From: Gammaproteobacteria bacterium
GTDB taxonomy: Bacteria > Pseudomonadota > Gammaproteobacteria > PIWD01
Direction: 5' to 3'
Assembly: GCA_003354005.1 (NCBI GenBank)
Contig: PIWD01000001.1
Coordinates: 19,489-83,488 of the forward strand
DNA: 64,000 nucleotides
This document shows, in pieces, positions 27,901 through 32,245 of the stretch. Below the pieces are notes generated by a model, which saw only the letters and a list, made by a program, of their open reading frames with translations, had not been told where the DNA came from and ran no database searches. The stretch's first letter is position 1. Each line of letters begins with the position of its first letter. A program made the position numbers and the translations under genes.

Positions 27901-29544
27901 TTGAAAAGGGACTCAAATTGGGTTAGGGATCTGAGTCGTCTTGGTGCAATAAAAAAACACTTGAGTGCAGTAGAAGGCTCAAAAGAAGGAGGCTCAGAAG
28001 TTGTCTCTTCATTTTTTAGGTATCAGTCTTTATCTCCATCTTACTCCCCAAAAAATCTTGCCGTCTCTGCACTAAATGCTTTAGCGTATAAATTTATCAA
28101 AGGAGTTGAATTATCTGCGCTATCTCAGCCTATAGGGCTAAAATTTCGTAATGGAAAGACAGGAGGTTTCAAGTTCCTTCAGTATACGCTATGGTGTGTT
28201 GAACACTATGCTTGTGTTTATATATTTTTTAATCGTGGTGATTCTCTTTATATCACTAGTATTGACTCTAATAAGCATTATGTGCCAAGTGTACATGAAA
28301 TTAATCTTGAGCGATTTTTTAAAAATTGCAAAATTAGGATATCTTTCAGATTAATAGATAAGTTAAGTACGCTTTCGATGGCTATGGATATTGTTAATGA
28401 AAGTGTTTTATCACGCTGCACTTACACAAACATAGAGGTGAGGAGCAGTTTATCTGATGATGAAGTCCAAAAATTTTTTATTAAATTGGATACGATACCA
28501 TCTCGTAATGTTTATGAACTTGCTTCTAAGTACTACCATGTTATCCGCTCACCATGTTGTCATGAGTACAAGTTAATGACACCTCTAGAATGGAAAACTA
28601 TTAGCATTGAATCATCCAAAGTGGTTTCATCTTATGTATGTGGGAAAGGTACAACTCCATATATTGTACGGATCAATCGTGGAAGGTTCGATGAAATTTA
28701 CAAAAGTTTAAAGGTGGAGTGTCTCGTAGATCTTATTCTCAGCTATGTTGATGGTGCATATCTTGCTGCTACAGAAAGAGGTATGCATATTAAGGAAGCT
28801 GCTAGAAAAAAAATGAAAATAGATGAAGAAATTGATAGCCGAAAGCAAAAATGTGATTGGAAGATCCTCCGTTTAGTGCTTTTCTTTCTTACGCAGAACT
28901 TATTATATTTCTTTTCGTGTGGCTAGATTTTCATAGTATGCATGATTGTAACAATCGTACTTAGCATTAGTTTTTTCTTGTGTATTCGAGGTTAGCTAGG
29001 ATCTTACAATTTAAAATGTGCAGTTTGTACGTGTATTGGTTATGGCTTGCAAATGTACGCGTATTTTCTAATTCTTAGGTTTTGTATTGTTGCTACATTT
29101 TTCGCAGTCCCGAGCTGGCTCACTATAGTCTTAAGCATTTTTTGTCTCATTGGCGCAGTTTTTATGTTATTAAGACTAGCGGCAGAAATCCTGGATGTGA
29201 AGACTAATGCTGTCTATGGTGTTGAATTATGCATAGTGTGTGTTCATAAGTACCTAAGTGTGGTTGGTATTTGTTCGTGTGTATTACTACTTGTCATATC
29301 TCCTTACTTGTCGGCATCAGTAGGTATTTATTATGCTGCATTTGTTTACAGTACGTTGATCAGCACGTGTTATTTCATCTATCAGGTTTTTGAGTACGAG
29401 CCAAATTATGATGCTGATCCTTATCCTATGGATGCCTTTAATTGCGGGAAGAGGGCAGAAGTATTGGAGAGTATGTTAAGAGACATTAAAAAAGGTGAGA
29501 CCATCGGTCAGGAACATCCACCTGGATTGGTATCGAATCCTTGA
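27901..29544 (+). pseudogene. Frameshifted paralogue of 25915-27786 (split into ORFs 27901-28926 and 29047-29544)
   Basis: Shared stretches (VSSF.(E/R)YQ.L..., LA..(M/A)L(D/N)AL.YKFI, LVLFFL.Q.LL.FF.GC, ..DPY(S/P)); about 120 bp out-of-frame gap; upstream AACTATCAGGAA.TT.CAGTTTGAAAA duplicated too. Confidence 0.6.
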
Positions 29545-29830
29545 CGTTCTCAGAGAGCAGCAGTATACTCTATCTATGAAAATAAGGAAAGTGTACAAAT
29601 TTAGGATAAGGTCGGGTGCTGAACAAGTCGCTCAACTGGGATAGTTTTCGGGTTGTTGTCGCTTTGTTCGGGATAAGTCCGTTTTTAGTGGTGGGGCTAA
29701 CCGTGTTAGCCTGTAGAGAGAATGTATTGGCAGCTTCTGTGAATCAGGCTTCCTGCAGATGAATGATCTAGTAGTGGTCTGAATCTCTATATTAGGAATC
29801 ACCTTCCTTCAGGGAGGCGAGGATGTCAAA
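29540..29830 (+). mobile_element. Miniature IS200/IS605-family (TnpB-only type) derivative, copy 1: promoter + TnpB N-terminal mini-ORF + conserved 3' segment ending in SD-ATG
   Basis: About 80% identical to 50527-50802; mini-ORF 29576-29644 MKIRKVYKFRIRSGAEQVAQLG* matches the TnpB/OrfB N-terminal HTH (YKFRxxPxxEQ..L); TTGACG-N17-TATACT at 29541-29569. Confidence 0.6.
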
Positions 29831-29845
29831 CAGAGAATTCTTTCA

Positions 29846-32245
29846 ATGATTGACAGTAAAGATAGAAATACATTGCCAACGACGATACGTAGTCGCTTGT
29901 ATGAGGCAGTGTTAATTTTGGTAAGTGCTGTTTCATTATTTTTGCTGTTGTCAATGATCAGTTATCATGCTTATGACCCAGGTTGGTCACATACTGGTGT
30001 GGGCATGCACTCCTCTATTGCAAATTGGGAAGGTAAGGCAGGGGCAGTAACTTCCGATTTTTTGTTTTATTTCTTTGGTATTGTTGCTTATGTTATTCCC
30101 GTGTTGTTATTTCACATTGTTTGGGAAATTTATCGGCGCAATCGTTTAGAAATCGCTAATGGTGCTATTTTGCTGTGTCGACTCGCTGGGTTCTTCATGA
30201 TCTTATCTGCGAGTTGTGCACTAATTGACTTGTATTTGCATCTTGGGTATTTGCCATCTTCATCGGGAGGCATACTTGGTCACTGTCTAGGGCAGTGGGC
30301 CTATCATTTTTCGGGTTCTGTTGGTAGTCTCTTGCTGCTTATTGGTCTATGGCTAACTGGCGTGACCTTATTGACTTCAGTGCGTTGGTCGAAGGTTATC
30401 GTCAAGCTGTTCCAATTCATACGTAACAGGTTTGCGATTATATCTGCTAAATTAGTGGTCTACAAAGAGAAAAGTAGAGCAGAGGTGTATGAGCAATTGC
30501 CTAAAAAAGAAATTACGGTTAGTAAAGTACATGGCTCGGTTGGCACAACTGATAGCATGCAGCCTGTCACTAGGGAGGAGACGATTGTTGATGTTGTTAA
30601 AGATGGCAATATGTCGGTGGAGCAATTGGTGCTTTTGCCAGAAAGGCAGGTATCCCTAGCTGAACGAGAGCACATAAATAGCTATTCGCTTGAAAAATCT
30701 GGCTCAGATGAAACTTTTGTTCTTGAATCTCGCAAAAAAATTGCTAAAAAACAAATAAAGATGCCACCCATTACATTATTGGATGCTGTGGCTAAGACAA
30801 ATCGTAAGGGATACGATAAGCAAAAATTGTATACGATTGCGCGTGAAGTTGAGTTACGCTTAAAAGATTTCAATATCATAGCTAAGGTTGTTGCAGCACA
30901 TCCTGGACCCGTAATTACCCGTTTTGAAATACAGCTTAGTGCAGGCACTAAAGTCAGTAAGATTACAGCACTTGCCAAGGATTTAGCTCGTTCCTTATCT
31001 GTTAGTAGCGTGCGTATCGTTGAAATTATACCTGGGAAATCAGTGATTGGCTTAGAGCTTCCAAACGCAAACCGAGATGTGGTTAAACTACGTGATAGCA
31101 TTGCATCAAAAGCATATCATCATGCCATATCCCCCTTAAGTTTAGCTCTGGGTTTAGATATTGCAGGGTATGCCATGGTTGTTAACTTAGGTAAAATGCC
31201 ACATTTATTGGTGGCAGGTACTACAGGTTCTGGTAAATCGGTTGGTTTAAATGCCATGCTATTGAGTTTGCTGTATAAATCGTCACCAGAGCAGCTTAGG
31301 CTTATTTTAATTGACCCCAAAATGTTAGAACTATCTGTTTACGAGAACATTCCTCATTTATTAACACCTGTGGTAACTGATATGAAAGATGCCGTTAGTG
31401 CTTTACGCTGGTGTGTTGCTGAAATGGATCGTCGTTATCAGATCATGTCCAGTGTAAAAGTTCGTAATTTGGCAAATTATAATAAGAAAATTCGCCAGGC
31501 TGGACTTAAAGGAGAGTTTCTTAACAATCCATTTGCAGAAAAGATTGGAGGTGGTGCACACAATGTAGAAGCCTTAACCGAATTACCGCATATTGTCGTT
31601 ATTGTCGATGAATTCGCTGATATGGTCATGTTGGTTGGCAAAAAAATAGAAGATCTGATTGCACGTATTGCGCAAAAAGCACGTGCTGCGGGTATTCACT
31701 TGATTTTAGCAACACAACGACCTTCCGTTGATGTGATTACGGGGTTGATTAAGGCAAATATTCCAGCCCGTATCGCTTTTCAAGTTTCCTCTAAAATTGA
31801 TTCACGAACAATTCTTGATCAAGGAGGGGCTGAACAGCTATTAGGCCAAGGTGACATGCTCTATTTATCAGCCGGTTCAGGCATGCCGATCCGGCTACAT
31901 GGAGCCTATGTATCGGATGAAGAAGTACATCGTGTGGCTACTTATTTGCGAGAGCAGGGCACACCTGATTACCTAGATGATATCACAAAATTTTCTGAGG
32001 AAGATGGGCAACCAAGTAGAAGTGATGAGAATCTTGAAAATGATCCATTCTACGATCGAGCAGTTGCTTGGGTCACTGAAAGTCGCCGTGTTTCTGTATC
32101 TTCAATACAGCGTCGCTTTAAAATTGGTTATAATAGGGCAGCCTGTATCGTTGAGGCAATGGAAACAGCAGGTGTGGTGACACCGATGTCAAGCAATGGT
32201 TCACGTGAGGTGCTAGCACCTGCACCAGTAAAGTATGGAGATTAA
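29846..32245 (+). CDS. ftsK: DNA translocase FtsK
   Basis: N-terminal 4 TM, long linker, C-terminal motor with Walker A GTTGSGKSV and DEFADMVM Walker B; gamma domain. Confidence 0.9.
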   Translation: MIDSKDRNTLPTTIRSRLYEAVLILVSAVSLFLLLSMISYHAYDPGWSHTGVGMHSSIANWEGKAGAVTSDFLFYFFGIVAYVIPVLLFHIVWEIYRRNRLEIANGAILLCRLAGFFMILSASCALIDLYLHLGYLPSSSGGILGHCLGQWAYHFSGSVGSLLLLIGLWLTGVTLLTSVRWSKVIVKLFQFIRNRFAIISAKLVVYKEKSRAEVYEQLPKKEITVSKVHGSVGTTDSMQPVTREETIVDVVKDGNMSVEQLVLLPERQVSLAEREHINSYSLEKSGSDETFVLESRKKIAKKQIKMPPITLLDAVAKTNRKGYDKQKLYTIAREVELRLKDFNIIAKVVAAHPGPVITRFEIQLSAGTKVSKITALAKDLARSLSVSSVRIVEIIPGKSVIGLELPNANRDVVKLRDSIASKAYHHAISPLSLALGLDIAGYAMVVNLGKMPHLLVAGTTGSGKSVGLNAMLLSLLYKSSPEQLRLILIDPKMLELSVYENIPHLLTPVVTDMKDAVSALRWCVAEMDRRYQIMSSVKVRNLANYNKKIRQAGLKGEFLNNPFAEKIGGGAHNVEALTELPHIVVIVDEFADMVMLVGKKIEDLIARIAQKARAAGIHLILATQRPSVDVITGLIKANIPARIAFQVSSKIDSRTILDQGGAEQLLGQGDMLYLSAGSGMPIRLHGAYVSDEEVHRVATYLREQGTPDYLDDITKFSEEDGQPSRSDENLENDPFYDRAVAWVTESRRVSVSSIQRRFKIGYNRAACIVEAMETAGVVTPMSSNGSREVLAPAPVKYGD

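Follow-up and report, generated by a model that had tools for sequence, protein, structure and literature searches.

A decayed IS605-type remnant as the probable source of the ftsK leader in a gammaproteobacterial contig

The 301 nt between ftsK and the open reading frame (ORF) upstream of it raise the question of what this spacer is and whether an essential gene is expressed through signals that a mobile element left behind. The locus was analyzed within a stretch of 64,000 nt of a gammaproteobacterial contig (henceforth the window). The ftsK product is identical to protein P0001, in which Pfam places PF13491, PF17854, PF01580, and PF09397, which we take to be the FtsK 4TM, alpha, FtsK/SpoIIIE, and gamma domains, respectively; the next FtsK in the same NCBI-derived collection is 54% identical. 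Its N-terminal length agrees with that of homologues, and its frame contains an in-frame stop at 29780 with no earlier ATG, GTG, or TTG. Downstream of ftsK are lolA and serS, and upstream are orphan ORFs (25915–29544) that have no Pfam family and are all on the ftsK strand. Taken as a whole, and with the mechanism proposed below included, a decayed IS605-type remnant that supplies the ftsK leader is a likely explanation of this arrangement.

Identity and anatomy of the element

Judged from its sequence, this spacer is occupied by what is left of a member of the IS200/IS605 family, of the IS605 type with divergent tnpA and tnpB, now decayed and without genes. The element accounts for 285 of the 301 nt, leaving 16 nt of non-element DNA, and its body consists of 36 tnpB codons that an internal deletion has placed next to the final ~146–150 nt of the IS (Table 1). 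The tnpB remnant, although broken by an in-frame TAG at 29642–44, scores 26.2 bits with Pfam PF12323 (HTH_OrfB_IS605; cutoff 21), as compared with 42.8 bits for a second copy at ileS; in tblastn, residues 1–36 of full-length TnpB align to both remnants, with 50% identity and E = 3e-6 for the ftsK copy when the L034 TnpB is used as the query. The 3′ portion is matched over the full length (model positions 1–151) by a covariance model trained on 25 elements from other genomes, with the window excluded, at 81.3 bits (E = 7e-20), whereas intact elements reach 113–153 bits. These matches bear out the initial annotation, in which the sequence upstream of ftsK had been called transposon-derived. Moreover, because only 16 nt separate the end of the element from the ftsK ATG, the ftsK mRNA must carry an IS-derived leader, so that a transposon-derived 5′ leader of ftsK, which had likewise been proposed, is almost certain.

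Table 1. Coordinates of the features at the ftsK locus and of the other element copies in the window
Feature	Position	Strand	Basis or remarks
Predicted sigma-70 promoter, TTGACG (29541–46), 17-nt spacer, TATACT (29564–69)	29541..29569	+	Ancestral tnpB promoter
tnpB remnant, first 36 codons (MKIRKVYKFRIRSGAEQVAQLG*FSGCCRFV...)	29576..29683	+	Pfam, tblastn, N-termini like those of full-length TnpBs
IS 3′ end (tnpB 3′ end and right end; omegaRNA scaffold region)	29680..29829	+	Covariance model, colinearity with full-length elements
Right-end terminal hairpin, TC-A-CCTTCC / TTCA / GGGAGG-C-GA	29799..29820	+	RNAalifold consensus stem, covariation
Element terminus GAGGATGTCAA, with the uORF ATG (29823–25) inside; element end after TCAA	29819..29829	+	Cross-phylum pattern search, flank divergence
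uORF of 8 codons, ATG TCA AAC AGA GAA TTC TTT CAA TGA (MSNREFFQ*)	29823..29849	+	Junction-created
Predicted hairpin UGUCAA...UUGACA	29824..29855	+	Last 6 element nt pair with ftsK codons 2–4; UG of both AUGs buried
Non-element DNA (ACAGAGAATTCTTTCA), element end to ftsK ATG	29830..29845	+	Without Shine-Dalgarno; guide segment if the scaffold served as omegaRNA
ftsK, 799 aa	29846..32245	+	Identical protein P0001
ileS copy, same internal deletion as the ftsK copy	50527..50803	+	77% identical to the ftsK copy over 292 nt
hsp20 copy, independent deletion form	10950..11243	-	tnpA 5′ remnant, promoter TTGACT-17-TACAGT, ~145-nt scaffold, right end
ATPase solo fragment	42937..43077	-	tnpA 5′ remnant (MHVHLILVTKYRR...) and tnpB promoter TTGACA-17-TACACT

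The anatomy of the remnant can be read against that of TnpB-encoding IS200/IS605 elements such as ISDra2 and IS608. In IS608, TCAA likewise closes the right end, and the ISDra2 scaffold is unlike that of the ftsK copy in sequence. As in such elements, the remnant begins with the tnpB N-terminus (HTH_OrfB_IS605), and a 3′ end of ~150 nt, closed by a subterminal hairpin together with a fixed terminal motif, is followed by variable flank; the TnpB guide RNA combines ~150 nt spanning the 3′ end of tnpB and the right end with ~16 nt of flank (PMC8612924). The ftsK copy differs in that tnpB is cut to 36 codons and both tnpA and the left-end hairpin are missing. A left-end hairpin or a TAM-flanked left boundary was found neither at this copy nor elsewhere in the 64-kb window, which likewise contains no intact tnpA or tnpB. 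Sequence searches found no closely related parent IS, and the remnant peptide as a query found no related TnpB. No Rfam family matches the scaffold at its gathering score; the HgcC family RNA (RF00062), considered together with archaeal sense-overlapping IS1341 transcripts, matched weakly across the terminal hairpin and the GAGGA-GUCA motif after it (16.4 bits, E = 0.2), and membership was rejected against a gathering score of 50.

The right end was further defined by a pattern search in which the 11-mer GAGGATGTCAA was required and two hairpin positions were left free, and which matched 119 stretches in many phyla. In 97 of 99 distinct copies, the two free positions form a pair (C-G in 79, T-G in 8, G-C in 4, A-T in 3, and T-A in 3); in the ftsK copy, this covarying pair is an A/C mismatch. 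Copies diverge in sequence immediately after TCAA, and for pairs of copies within one genome, homology is lost at or no more than 2 nt past this point. The right-end motif occurs three times in the window, with none expected. For 47 copies, the sequence upstream extends over 1.7 kb or more, and in about 22 of them an open frame of ~400 aa stops 20–53 nt short of the element end. Two of these frames were tested, and both encode RNA-guided endonuclease TnpB (NF040570 scores of 336 and 343 bits, cutoff 100) and also carry Pfam OrfB_IS605 and Cas12f1-like_TNB. A Psychromonas MAG (L073, L078) provides a true gene-less example of 333 nt with both ends.

Other copies in the window

The ileS copy, which scores 56.5 bits with the covariance model, has its terminal ATG (50797) in frame with ileS; 5 nt separate the element end from the recorded ileS start (ATG 50809; 961 aa in the NCBI-derived collection), and the 961-aa product has IleRS Pfam domains. 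The hsp20 copy scores 75.7 bits at 11093–10950 and ends 31 nt upstream of a gene that has an HSP20 Pfam domain and its own AAAGGAG. The solo fragment precedes a P-type ATPase ORF (ATG 42896; Pfam domains) by 40 nt; in tblastn it aligns with L034 TnpA along 21 aa at 76% identity (E = 1e-7), and in blastn it matches the tnpA regions of IS605-type loci. The copies resemble PATEs and MITE-like IS200/IS605 derivatives, for example, those of Haloquadratum and Geobacillus stearothermophilus, in being short, in having no protein gene while keeping the omegaRNA region, and in that the ftsK and ileS copies have one common deletion junction; PATE-like derivatives without genes often retain the omegaRNA (PMC10055086). 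Unlike mobilizable PATEs, however, the window copies are missing the left end and are thus immobile debris.

Transcription into ftsK

The TTGACG/TATACT promoter of the initial annotation is present and co-oriented with ftsK, and the stop codon of the upstream ORF (29047..29544) lies inside its -35 hexamer. Its layout is conserved in the family, as full-length IS605-type relatives with divergent tnpA place the -10 hexamer 5–7 nt before the tnpB ATG, and the ftsK copy places it 6 nt before; a leaderless tnpB mRNA is predicted from this distance, and translation of the tnpB remnant, if any, would start on such an mRNA. No intrinsic terminator was predicted between the element promoter and ftsK (28800–30000). 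Transcripts of ftsK would most likely start at the tnpB promoter, read through from the upstream ORFs on the same strand, or arise in both ways, and a material contribution of the tnpB promoter is slightly favored. Sigma-70 promoters of mobile elements that drive neighboring genes are familiar from ISAba1-bla, IS10 pOUT, and the Correia elements in Neisseria, and the predicted promoter is similarly located directly upstream of, and co-oriented with, a host gene; it differs in being the element’s own tnpB promoter rather than a terminal outward or hybrid one, and the transcript would have to cross a structured guide-RNA scaffold.

Alternatively, the element promoter could be silent or irrelevant, in which case ftsK would be expressed by read-through from the upstream ORFs, and the long 5′ leader would carry the remnant as a tolerated passenger. 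The shared strand of these ORFs and the lack of a predicted terminator-like site between them and ftsK would allow this, and promoter-like matches of at least 9/12 are no commoner than chance in this AT-rich region; shuffled versions of the 1.2-kb region contain a mean of 3.2 promoter-like sites, and a 10/12 match alone is not beyond chance. Nevertheless, the element promoter is the best such site in 28800–30000 (10/12), its key positions (TTGAC, TA...T, and the 17-nt spacer) are kept in four diverged window copies (ftsK, ileS, ATPase, and hsp20), each directly upstream of a co-oriented gene, and orphan ORFs are unlikely partners for an essential gene, which makes read-through as the only source unlikely. 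Still less probable, indeed improbable, is that the remnant is a working guide-RNA gene, its omegaRNA carrying a 16-nt guide from the ftsK leader for a TnpB encoded elsewhere, with transcription into ftsK being incidental or shortened by TnpB processing. The spacing of exactly 16 nt from the element end to the ftsK ATG, the full-length covariance match, the omegaRNAs of PATE-like elements reported to be used in trans (PMC10055086), and the retention of the promoter, the ~145–150-nt scaffold, and the right end in two independent deletion forms would all fit such a gene; two forms, however, are too few for a selection argument, the scaffold scores below intact copies and has a mismatched terminal hairpin, the window yielded no intact tnpB and the peptide search no related TnpB, and ftsK would still require an mRNA that passes through the scaffold RNA.

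Initiation of ftsK translation

The initial annotation had also described a GGAGG and an ATG supplied by the 3′ end of the element, an 8-codon uORF with an ATGA overlap, and an ftsK start without a Shine-Dalgarno (SD) sequence. The uORF can be read directly, its TGA (29847–49) overlapping the ftsK ATG (29846–48), and the SD-less start was upheld, since the best anti-SD duplex within 20 nt upstream of the ftsK ATG, the 16 non-element nt included, reaches only -2.9 kcal/mol, as compared with -13.1 kcal/mol for the uORF. The GGAGG (29813–17) and the ATG are likewise in place; as signals that serve ftsK they did not stand, the former being the 3′ arm of the right-end hairpin and the latter part of a terminus found across phyla. 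Because the promoter, GGAGG, and ATG are inherited parts of the IS (the tnpB promoter, the hairpin arm, and the terminus common to many phyla), these signals are, as far as their sequences tell, not adapted to ftsK.

A start without an SD is ordinary in the window, where 10 of the 24 ATG-start ORFs have an SD no better than that of ftsK (counted from the anti-SD table). IS200/IS605 insertion produces no target duplication (PMC8612924) and would presumably leave the flank intact; as its 16 nt contain no SD, ftsK probably had none before the insertion either, an argument that may be weakened if the flank has changed since. The ftsK AUG lies in the UGUCAA...UUGACA hairpin, which is predicted at -9.1 kcal/mol (10 of 2000 mononucleotide shuffles are equally stable) and belongs to the minimum-free-energy fold in all three transcript windows tested. 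Translation of ftsK would begin either directly at its SD-less AUG or after low-level translation of the uORF has opened the hairpin that buries this AUG.

It is doubtful that ftsK is translated chiefly by way of the uORF, such that ribosomes would bind the element GGAGG, translate the uORF, and reinitiate at the ftsK AUG, with ftsK translation mainly uORF-dependent. Its geometry is that of a textbook case (GGAGG, 5 nt, ATG, and the ATGA overlap), the anti-SD duplex is far stronger at the uORF, and the 5′ arm of the AUG-burying hairpin lies inside the uORF, whose translation would therefore expose the ftsK AUG; at ileS too, the element GGAGG is the only SD near the annotated start. However, the GGAGG is itself predicted to be paired (P(unpaired) ~0.01) in a local right-end hairpin of -10.0 kcal/mol, as is the UG of the uORF AUG, so that unfolding would cost ~19 kcal/mol against 13 gained (summed predictions). 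The retention of the GGAGG and ATG across phyla for transposon reasons, the frequency of SD-less starts, and the probable SD-less initiation of ftsK before the insertion count against it as well. Known ATGA coupling and leader-peptide uORFs similarly combine a short SD-ATG ORF with a stop that overlaps an SD-less gene start, and, in ATGA coupling, a hairpin over the downstream AUG that the upstream ribosome would open, as is predicted here; in this locus, the uORF came about incidentally from a transposon end, and its SD is predicted to be sequestered.

As the junction reads, the uORF exists only because the terminus ATG happens to read into the 16-nt flank and stops on the ftsK ATGA. At a random junction, such an arrangement is not improbable, with an estimated chance of roughly 5%; at 109 other junctions, the ORFs that start with the right-end ATG are 3–566 codons long, and the ATG of the hsp20 copy opens an ORF of 5 codons.

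Origin of the element upstream of ftsK

The element upstream of ftsK comprises the promoter of a tnpB gene and 36 tnpB codons, joined across an internal deletion to the last ~146 nt of an insertion sequence (IS). The ORF that opens right after its -10 hexamer reads MKIRKVYKFRIRSGAEQVAQLG*FSGCCRFV, and its counterpart in a second copy upstream of ileS reads MRMRKSYEFRIKPSAEQVAQLGRFSVCCRFVWN; PF12323 (HTH_OrfB_IS605) is matched at 26.2 and 42.8 bits, respectively, above a cutoff of 21. Both remnants align with residues 1-36 of the TnpB of L034, a locus from another genome that served as the source of full-length TnpB and TnpA queries (tblastn, E=3e-6 for the ftsK copy), and only these first 36 codons are left. 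At the other end, the right-end motif AATCnCCTTyCTTyA...GAGGATGTCAA occurs three times in the window against none expected, and in 119 stretches of genome_contigs from Chlamydiota, Methylococcaceae, Thiothrix, Burkholderiales, Desulfobulbaceae, actinomycetes, cyanobacteria, Acidobacteriota and others. Immediately after TCAA the copies turn unrelated; in pairs from the same genome, homology ends at TCAA or at most 2 nt beyond it; on the other side, it begins at TTAT(C) or TGATC and continues into a similar left-end hairpin.

Among the 47 copies with 1.7 kb or more of sequence upstream, about 22 have an open frame of ~400 aa that stops 20-53 nt short of the element end. Both of the ORFs tested are RNA-guided endonucleases TnpB (NF040570, 336 and 343 bits; cutoff 100) and carry the Pfam domains OrfB_IS605 and Cas12f1-like_TNB. 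Several relatives have a divergent tnpA (MHVHLVFVTKYR...) upstream of tnpB, an arrangement that marks the family as IS605-type. By membership, the element is an IS200/IS605-family TnpB remnant that retains tnpB homology and the right end and has lost the left end and the intact genes. Searches with the 43-aa tnpB remnant as a protein query gave no candidates, element-specific DNA patterns had no matches in metagenome_contigs, and a literature search for the terminal 11-mer returned unrelated primer and sequence matches only.

Further copies and fragments of the same IS are collected in the table below. The at least five or six remnants within 64 kb suggest an old expansion of this IS followed by decay. 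The same junction, joining tnpB codon ~36 to the scaffold start (TTTAG...), is visible in two copies, those at ftsK and ileS. One piece of debris sits just upstream of an orphan ORF, and the pentamers just beyond the right ends at ileS and hsp20 are identical to the forms that the target-adjacent motif takes beside left ends in other genomes. Two independent deletion forms, joined after tnpB codon 36 in one and ~11 nt past the -10 hexamer in the other, both keep the tnpB promoter, a scaffold of ~145-150 nt and the right end; with only two forms to go by, it may be a faint sign of selection for a minimal guide-RNA cassette.

Coordinates of the element, its copies and neighbouring features (window positions)
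Feature	Position	Strand	Remark
Element upstream of ftsK	29540-29829	+
-35 hexamer TTGACG	29541-29546
-10 hexamer TATACT	29564-29569		17-nt spacer
tnpB remnant ATG	29576		6 nt after -10
Covariance-model match (scaffold)	29680-29829
In-frame stop before ftsK	29780
TATATT	29788-29793		internal, 3' part of element
GGAGG	29813-29817		5 nt before uORF ATG
uORF ATG	29823
Palindrome/hairpin	29824-29855		last 6 nt of transposon end plus ftsK codons 2-4
Non-element flank	29830-29845
ftsK ORF	29846..32245		ATG 29846-29848
uORF TGA	29847-29849
Alternative ftsK start TTG	29873
Three orphan ORFs	25915-29544		last stop codon 29542-29544
Second copy	50527-50803	+	upstream of ileS; 77% identity to ftsK copy, internal layout alike
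Element ATG at ileS	50797
TTATC beyond right end	50804-50808
ileS ATG in NCBI-derived collection	50809
GTG in ileS	50824
Third copy, shorter	~11243 to 10950	-	upstream of hsp20 gene
TGATC beyond right end	10945-10949	-
Solo promoter fragment	42966 to 42937	-	upstream of P-type ATPase ORF
tnpA 5' remnant	42977-43039		tblastn E=1e-7
tnpA 5' remnant, weaker	27804-27854		tblastn E=0.04
tnpA 5' remnant, weaker	11165-11197		beside hsp20 copy; tblastn E=8.7 plus shared upstream homology
Debris (tnpA 5' fragments, decayed intergenic promoter regions)	27797-27870; 10075-10115; 42977-43077
Orphan ORF beside debris	27901..28926
Inverted repeats	10159-10271 / 54216-54328		113 nt, 82% complementarity
Inverted repeats	56143-56299 / 62618-62778		~160 nt, 88-91%
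Repeat-rich ORF	3055-5814	-	919 aa
9-nt tandem repeat	47265-47336		within ORF 46411..47910

Guide-RNA scaffold and gene-less relatives

In characterised TnpB elements, the last stretch gives rise to a guide RNA of ~150 nt whose final ~16 nt are taken from the flank (PMC8612924). An omegaRNA so defined has a scaffold of ~100-200 nt, drawn from the tnpB 3' end and right end, and then ~16 nt of flank; the ftsK copy has the same layout, a full-length scaffold followed by a 16-nt flank. A covariance model of the last 150 nt of 25 elements from other genomes, with the window left out, is matched over its full length by the ftsK copy at 81.3 bits (E=7e-20), the hsp20 copy at 75.7 and the ileS copy at 56.5, compared with 113-153 bits for intact-looking copies elsewhere. 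Compensatory changes are found in two stems, at columns 35-49 and in the terminal hairpin, and no fold emerged for the middle of the scaffold; in the ftsK copy, the covarying pair of the terminal hairpin is A/C. At gathering score, Rfam recovers two tRNAs in the window and no family for the element, and the sole hit of a relaxed scan is a weak resemblance to HgcC at the terminal hairpin. From the right-end cleavage site to the ftsK ATG there are exactly 16 nt, the length of the guide segment in TnpB systems; were the scaffold to function as a guide RNA, the ftsK leader would be its guide.

Gene-less derivatives that retain the omegaRNA are known as PATE-like elements (PMC10055086), and the present element resembles such a cassette. 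Similar to PATEs and MITEs, it has two copies with one internal deletion (ftsK and ileS); unlike them, the copies in the window keep the right end without the left. Their homology begins, in the ftsK copy, at the -35 hexamer or just before it, and no second CCTTCC...GG hairpin is present in the window, whereas relatives do have a left end, e.g., AAACCCCTTCCTTCAGGTCGGGGATATAAGG after TTAT(C) or TGATC. Intact tnpA, which encodes the Y1 transposase, and intact tnpB are likewise absent from the window, in which tblastn with the TnpA and TnpB of L034 gives short N-terminal fragments only. Since both the left-end hairpin and intact transposon genes are lacking, the copies are immobile remnants rather than PATEs. 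Among gene-less loci of other genomes, a regular-expression search for the left-end hairpin returned a Psychromonas MITE alone; this 333-nt derivative of the same IS clade, in a Psychromonas metagenome-assembled genome (L073:4754-5086 and L078:4740-5072), has left-end and right-end hairpins in two copies of 98.8% identity and is a genuine PATE/MITE.

A far-reaching reading would take the IS605 remnants as still-expressed orphan guide-RNA cassettes that double as 5' leaders of ftsK and ileS, the scaffold in these mRNAs being bound or processed by a TnpB, or by a TnpB derivative without nuclease activity, from elsewhere in the genome. We consider this very improbable; if true, it would tie the expression of a cell-division gene and a tRNA-charging gene to transposon activity. 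In a more modest version, the cassette may have been retained repeatedly as a portable promoter and ribosome-binding module.

Transcription and translation of ftsK

The assignment of ftsK in the initial annotation is borne out by an identical 799-aa protein in an NCBI-derived collection, whose four Pfam domains we take to be FtsK domains. The length of the N-terminus falls inside the range of homologues, an in-frame stop precedes the ORF with no earlier start codon, and lolA and serS lie downstream. A TTG within the gene was considered as an alternative start and suits the shortest homologue N-termini, but it too is without a Shine-Dalgarno (SD) sequence. Orthologous upstream regions are not comparable, because the next-best FtsK relative is only 54% identical; no close relatives of the organism were present in the collections searched. 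Upstream of ftsK lie three co-oriented orphan ORFs (623, 341 and 165 aa) without a Pfam family, the first two having the repeated segments D9, D11 and D13 in common.

The promoter hexamers proposed initially can be read from the sequence and match the consensus at 10 of 12 positions, and their layout is kept in four window copies and in relatives. In IS605-type relatives, the spacer between tnpA and tnpB carries TTGnnA, 17 nt and a TATAAT-like hexamer that ends 5-7 nt before the tnpB ATG; the window copies have the same layout, so the promoter is the family's own tnpB promoter, the geometry of which predicts a leaderless mRNA. It is the best sigma-70 match in 28800-30000, and the promoter/terminator scan placed no terminator-like site between it and ftsK; it probably contributes to ftsK transcription. 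Read-through from the co-oriented orphan ORFs is another possible source, and the stop codon of the third of these falls within the -35 hexamer of the element. The internal TATATT was dismissed as a promoter, having no acceptable -35 by eye and no call in the scan. Of the 301 intergenic nt, 285 belong to the element and 16 just before the ftsK ATG do not, so any ftsK transcript that begins farther upstream than these 16 nt has a leader derived from the IS; a transposon-derived leader, as the initial annotation proposed, is thus nearly certain from geometry.

The translation signals described in the initial annotation, namely GGAGG, an ATG and an eight-codon upstream ORF (MSNREFFQ*) whose TGA overlaps the ftsK ATG as ATGA, are likewise present. 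The first two do sit at the 3' end of the element, but as inherited IS features, none of them evolved for ftsK. The terminal hairpin of the right end, CCTTCC / TTyA / GGnAGG, has GGAGG as its 3' arm, and its stem is also recovered by RNAalifold. Because the search pattern had fixed the 5' arm and the terminal 11-mer, the independent evidence for this stem consists of the 3' arm and the one pair left free, which forms in 97 of 99 distinct copies (C-G 79, T-G 8, G-C 4, A-T 3, T-A 3). The uORF ATG is part of the terminus GAGGATGTCAA and is common to the copies because the pattern required that terminus. The right-end ATG opens a 5-codon ORF at hsp20, runs in frame into ileS, and opens ORFs of 3-566 codons at 109 other junctions. 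Short ORFs at other copies of the element are unrelated, and the uORF owes its existence to the junction.

The claim that ftsK itself has no SD sequence stands, since the anti-SD duplex over the 20 nt upstream reaches only -2.9 kcal/mol. Coupling to the uORF has the appropriate geometry in SD distance and stop/start overlap, but its ribosome-binding site is predicted to be inaccessible: ViennaRNA has GGAGG paired in all three transcript contexts (P(unpaired) 0.01-0.02; hairpin -10 kcal/mol). An imperfect palindrome, UGUCAAaCAgaGAAuucuUUCaaUGaUUGACA, spans the junction. The corresponding hairpin UGUCAA...UUGACA (-9.1 kcal/mol; 10 of 2000 shuffles as stable) is predicted to bury the UG of both AUGs, and may be either of chance origin or a regulatory stem. 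This predicted folding argues against efficient initiation on the uORF, and equally implies that a ribosome on the uORF would unmask the ftsK AUG. Moreover, an SD no better than that of ftsK precedes 10 of the 24 ATG-start ORFs in the window (by our count). IS200/IS605 insertion makes no target duplication (PMC8612924) and presumably leaves the flank intact, in which case an empty site without the element would read TAM + ACAGAGAATTCTTTCAATG. On that view the 16 nt are native; as they include no SD, ftsK probably already lacked one when the element inserted. With SD-less starts common as well, there is less need for coupling. Translational coupling of ftsK to the uORF therefore appears possible yet unlikely, and is not the default reading; SD, ATG and uORF either came with the element or arose by accident, and their use for ftsK is putative.

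Right ends beside other genes and further features of the window

At ileS, five non-element nt precede the start in the NCBI-derived collection and the nearest SD is the GGAGG of the element; a GTG farther downstream would suit the N-termini of ileS homologues better, leaving the true start uncertain. The hsp20 gene, which possesses its own AAAGGAG, starts 31 nt past the end of the copy there, and the solo promoter lies 40 nt before the ATPase ATG. The right ends lie 16, 5 and 31 nt from gene starts, three of three, against a crude background in which 21 of 109 other junctions (~19%) are followed within 35 nt by the start of a co-oriented ORF of 100 aa or more. In-gene insertions, together with random ORFs in GC-rich genomes, inflate that background, and the closeness is only suggestive. 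All remnants also point into a co-oriented gene, which was set aside as evidence of co-option, because the near-uniform orientation of genes in the window and the bias of IS200/IS605 insertion towards one replication strand (PMC8612924) would lead one to expect it.

Should ftsK and, apparently, ileS indeed be driven by the tnpB promoter and right end, essential genes would run on the leftover signals of a TnpB transposon, and a guide-RNA scaffold would serve as the 5' UTR. In its working, the arrangement resembles the promoters and leaders that IS elements and MITEs place ahead of host genes. Such promoters are already well known, and the present case adds a family and an architecture to them, not a new principle. 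The case also shows how an insertion beside a start codon can be tolerated; GGAGG and ATG are present by chance in the right-end hairpin of this IS clade, which is widespread. For annotation, SD and ATG pairs at these element ends should be regarded as structural transposon features and not as evolved translation signals.

Other repeats were also observed in the window. Both pairs of inverted repeats lie next to gene starts; the first, which adjoins a tnpA-like fragment, may be further IS debris, and the second precedes ORFs without a Pfam family. The 919-aa ORF, with no Pfam family above threshold, consists mostly of diverged repeat units of 117-132 nt (families D1-D5). Another ORF without a Pfam family contains the 9-nt tandem repeat, which is in frame and comprises about eight units, e.g., TCAATTAGA and GCAATTAGA.
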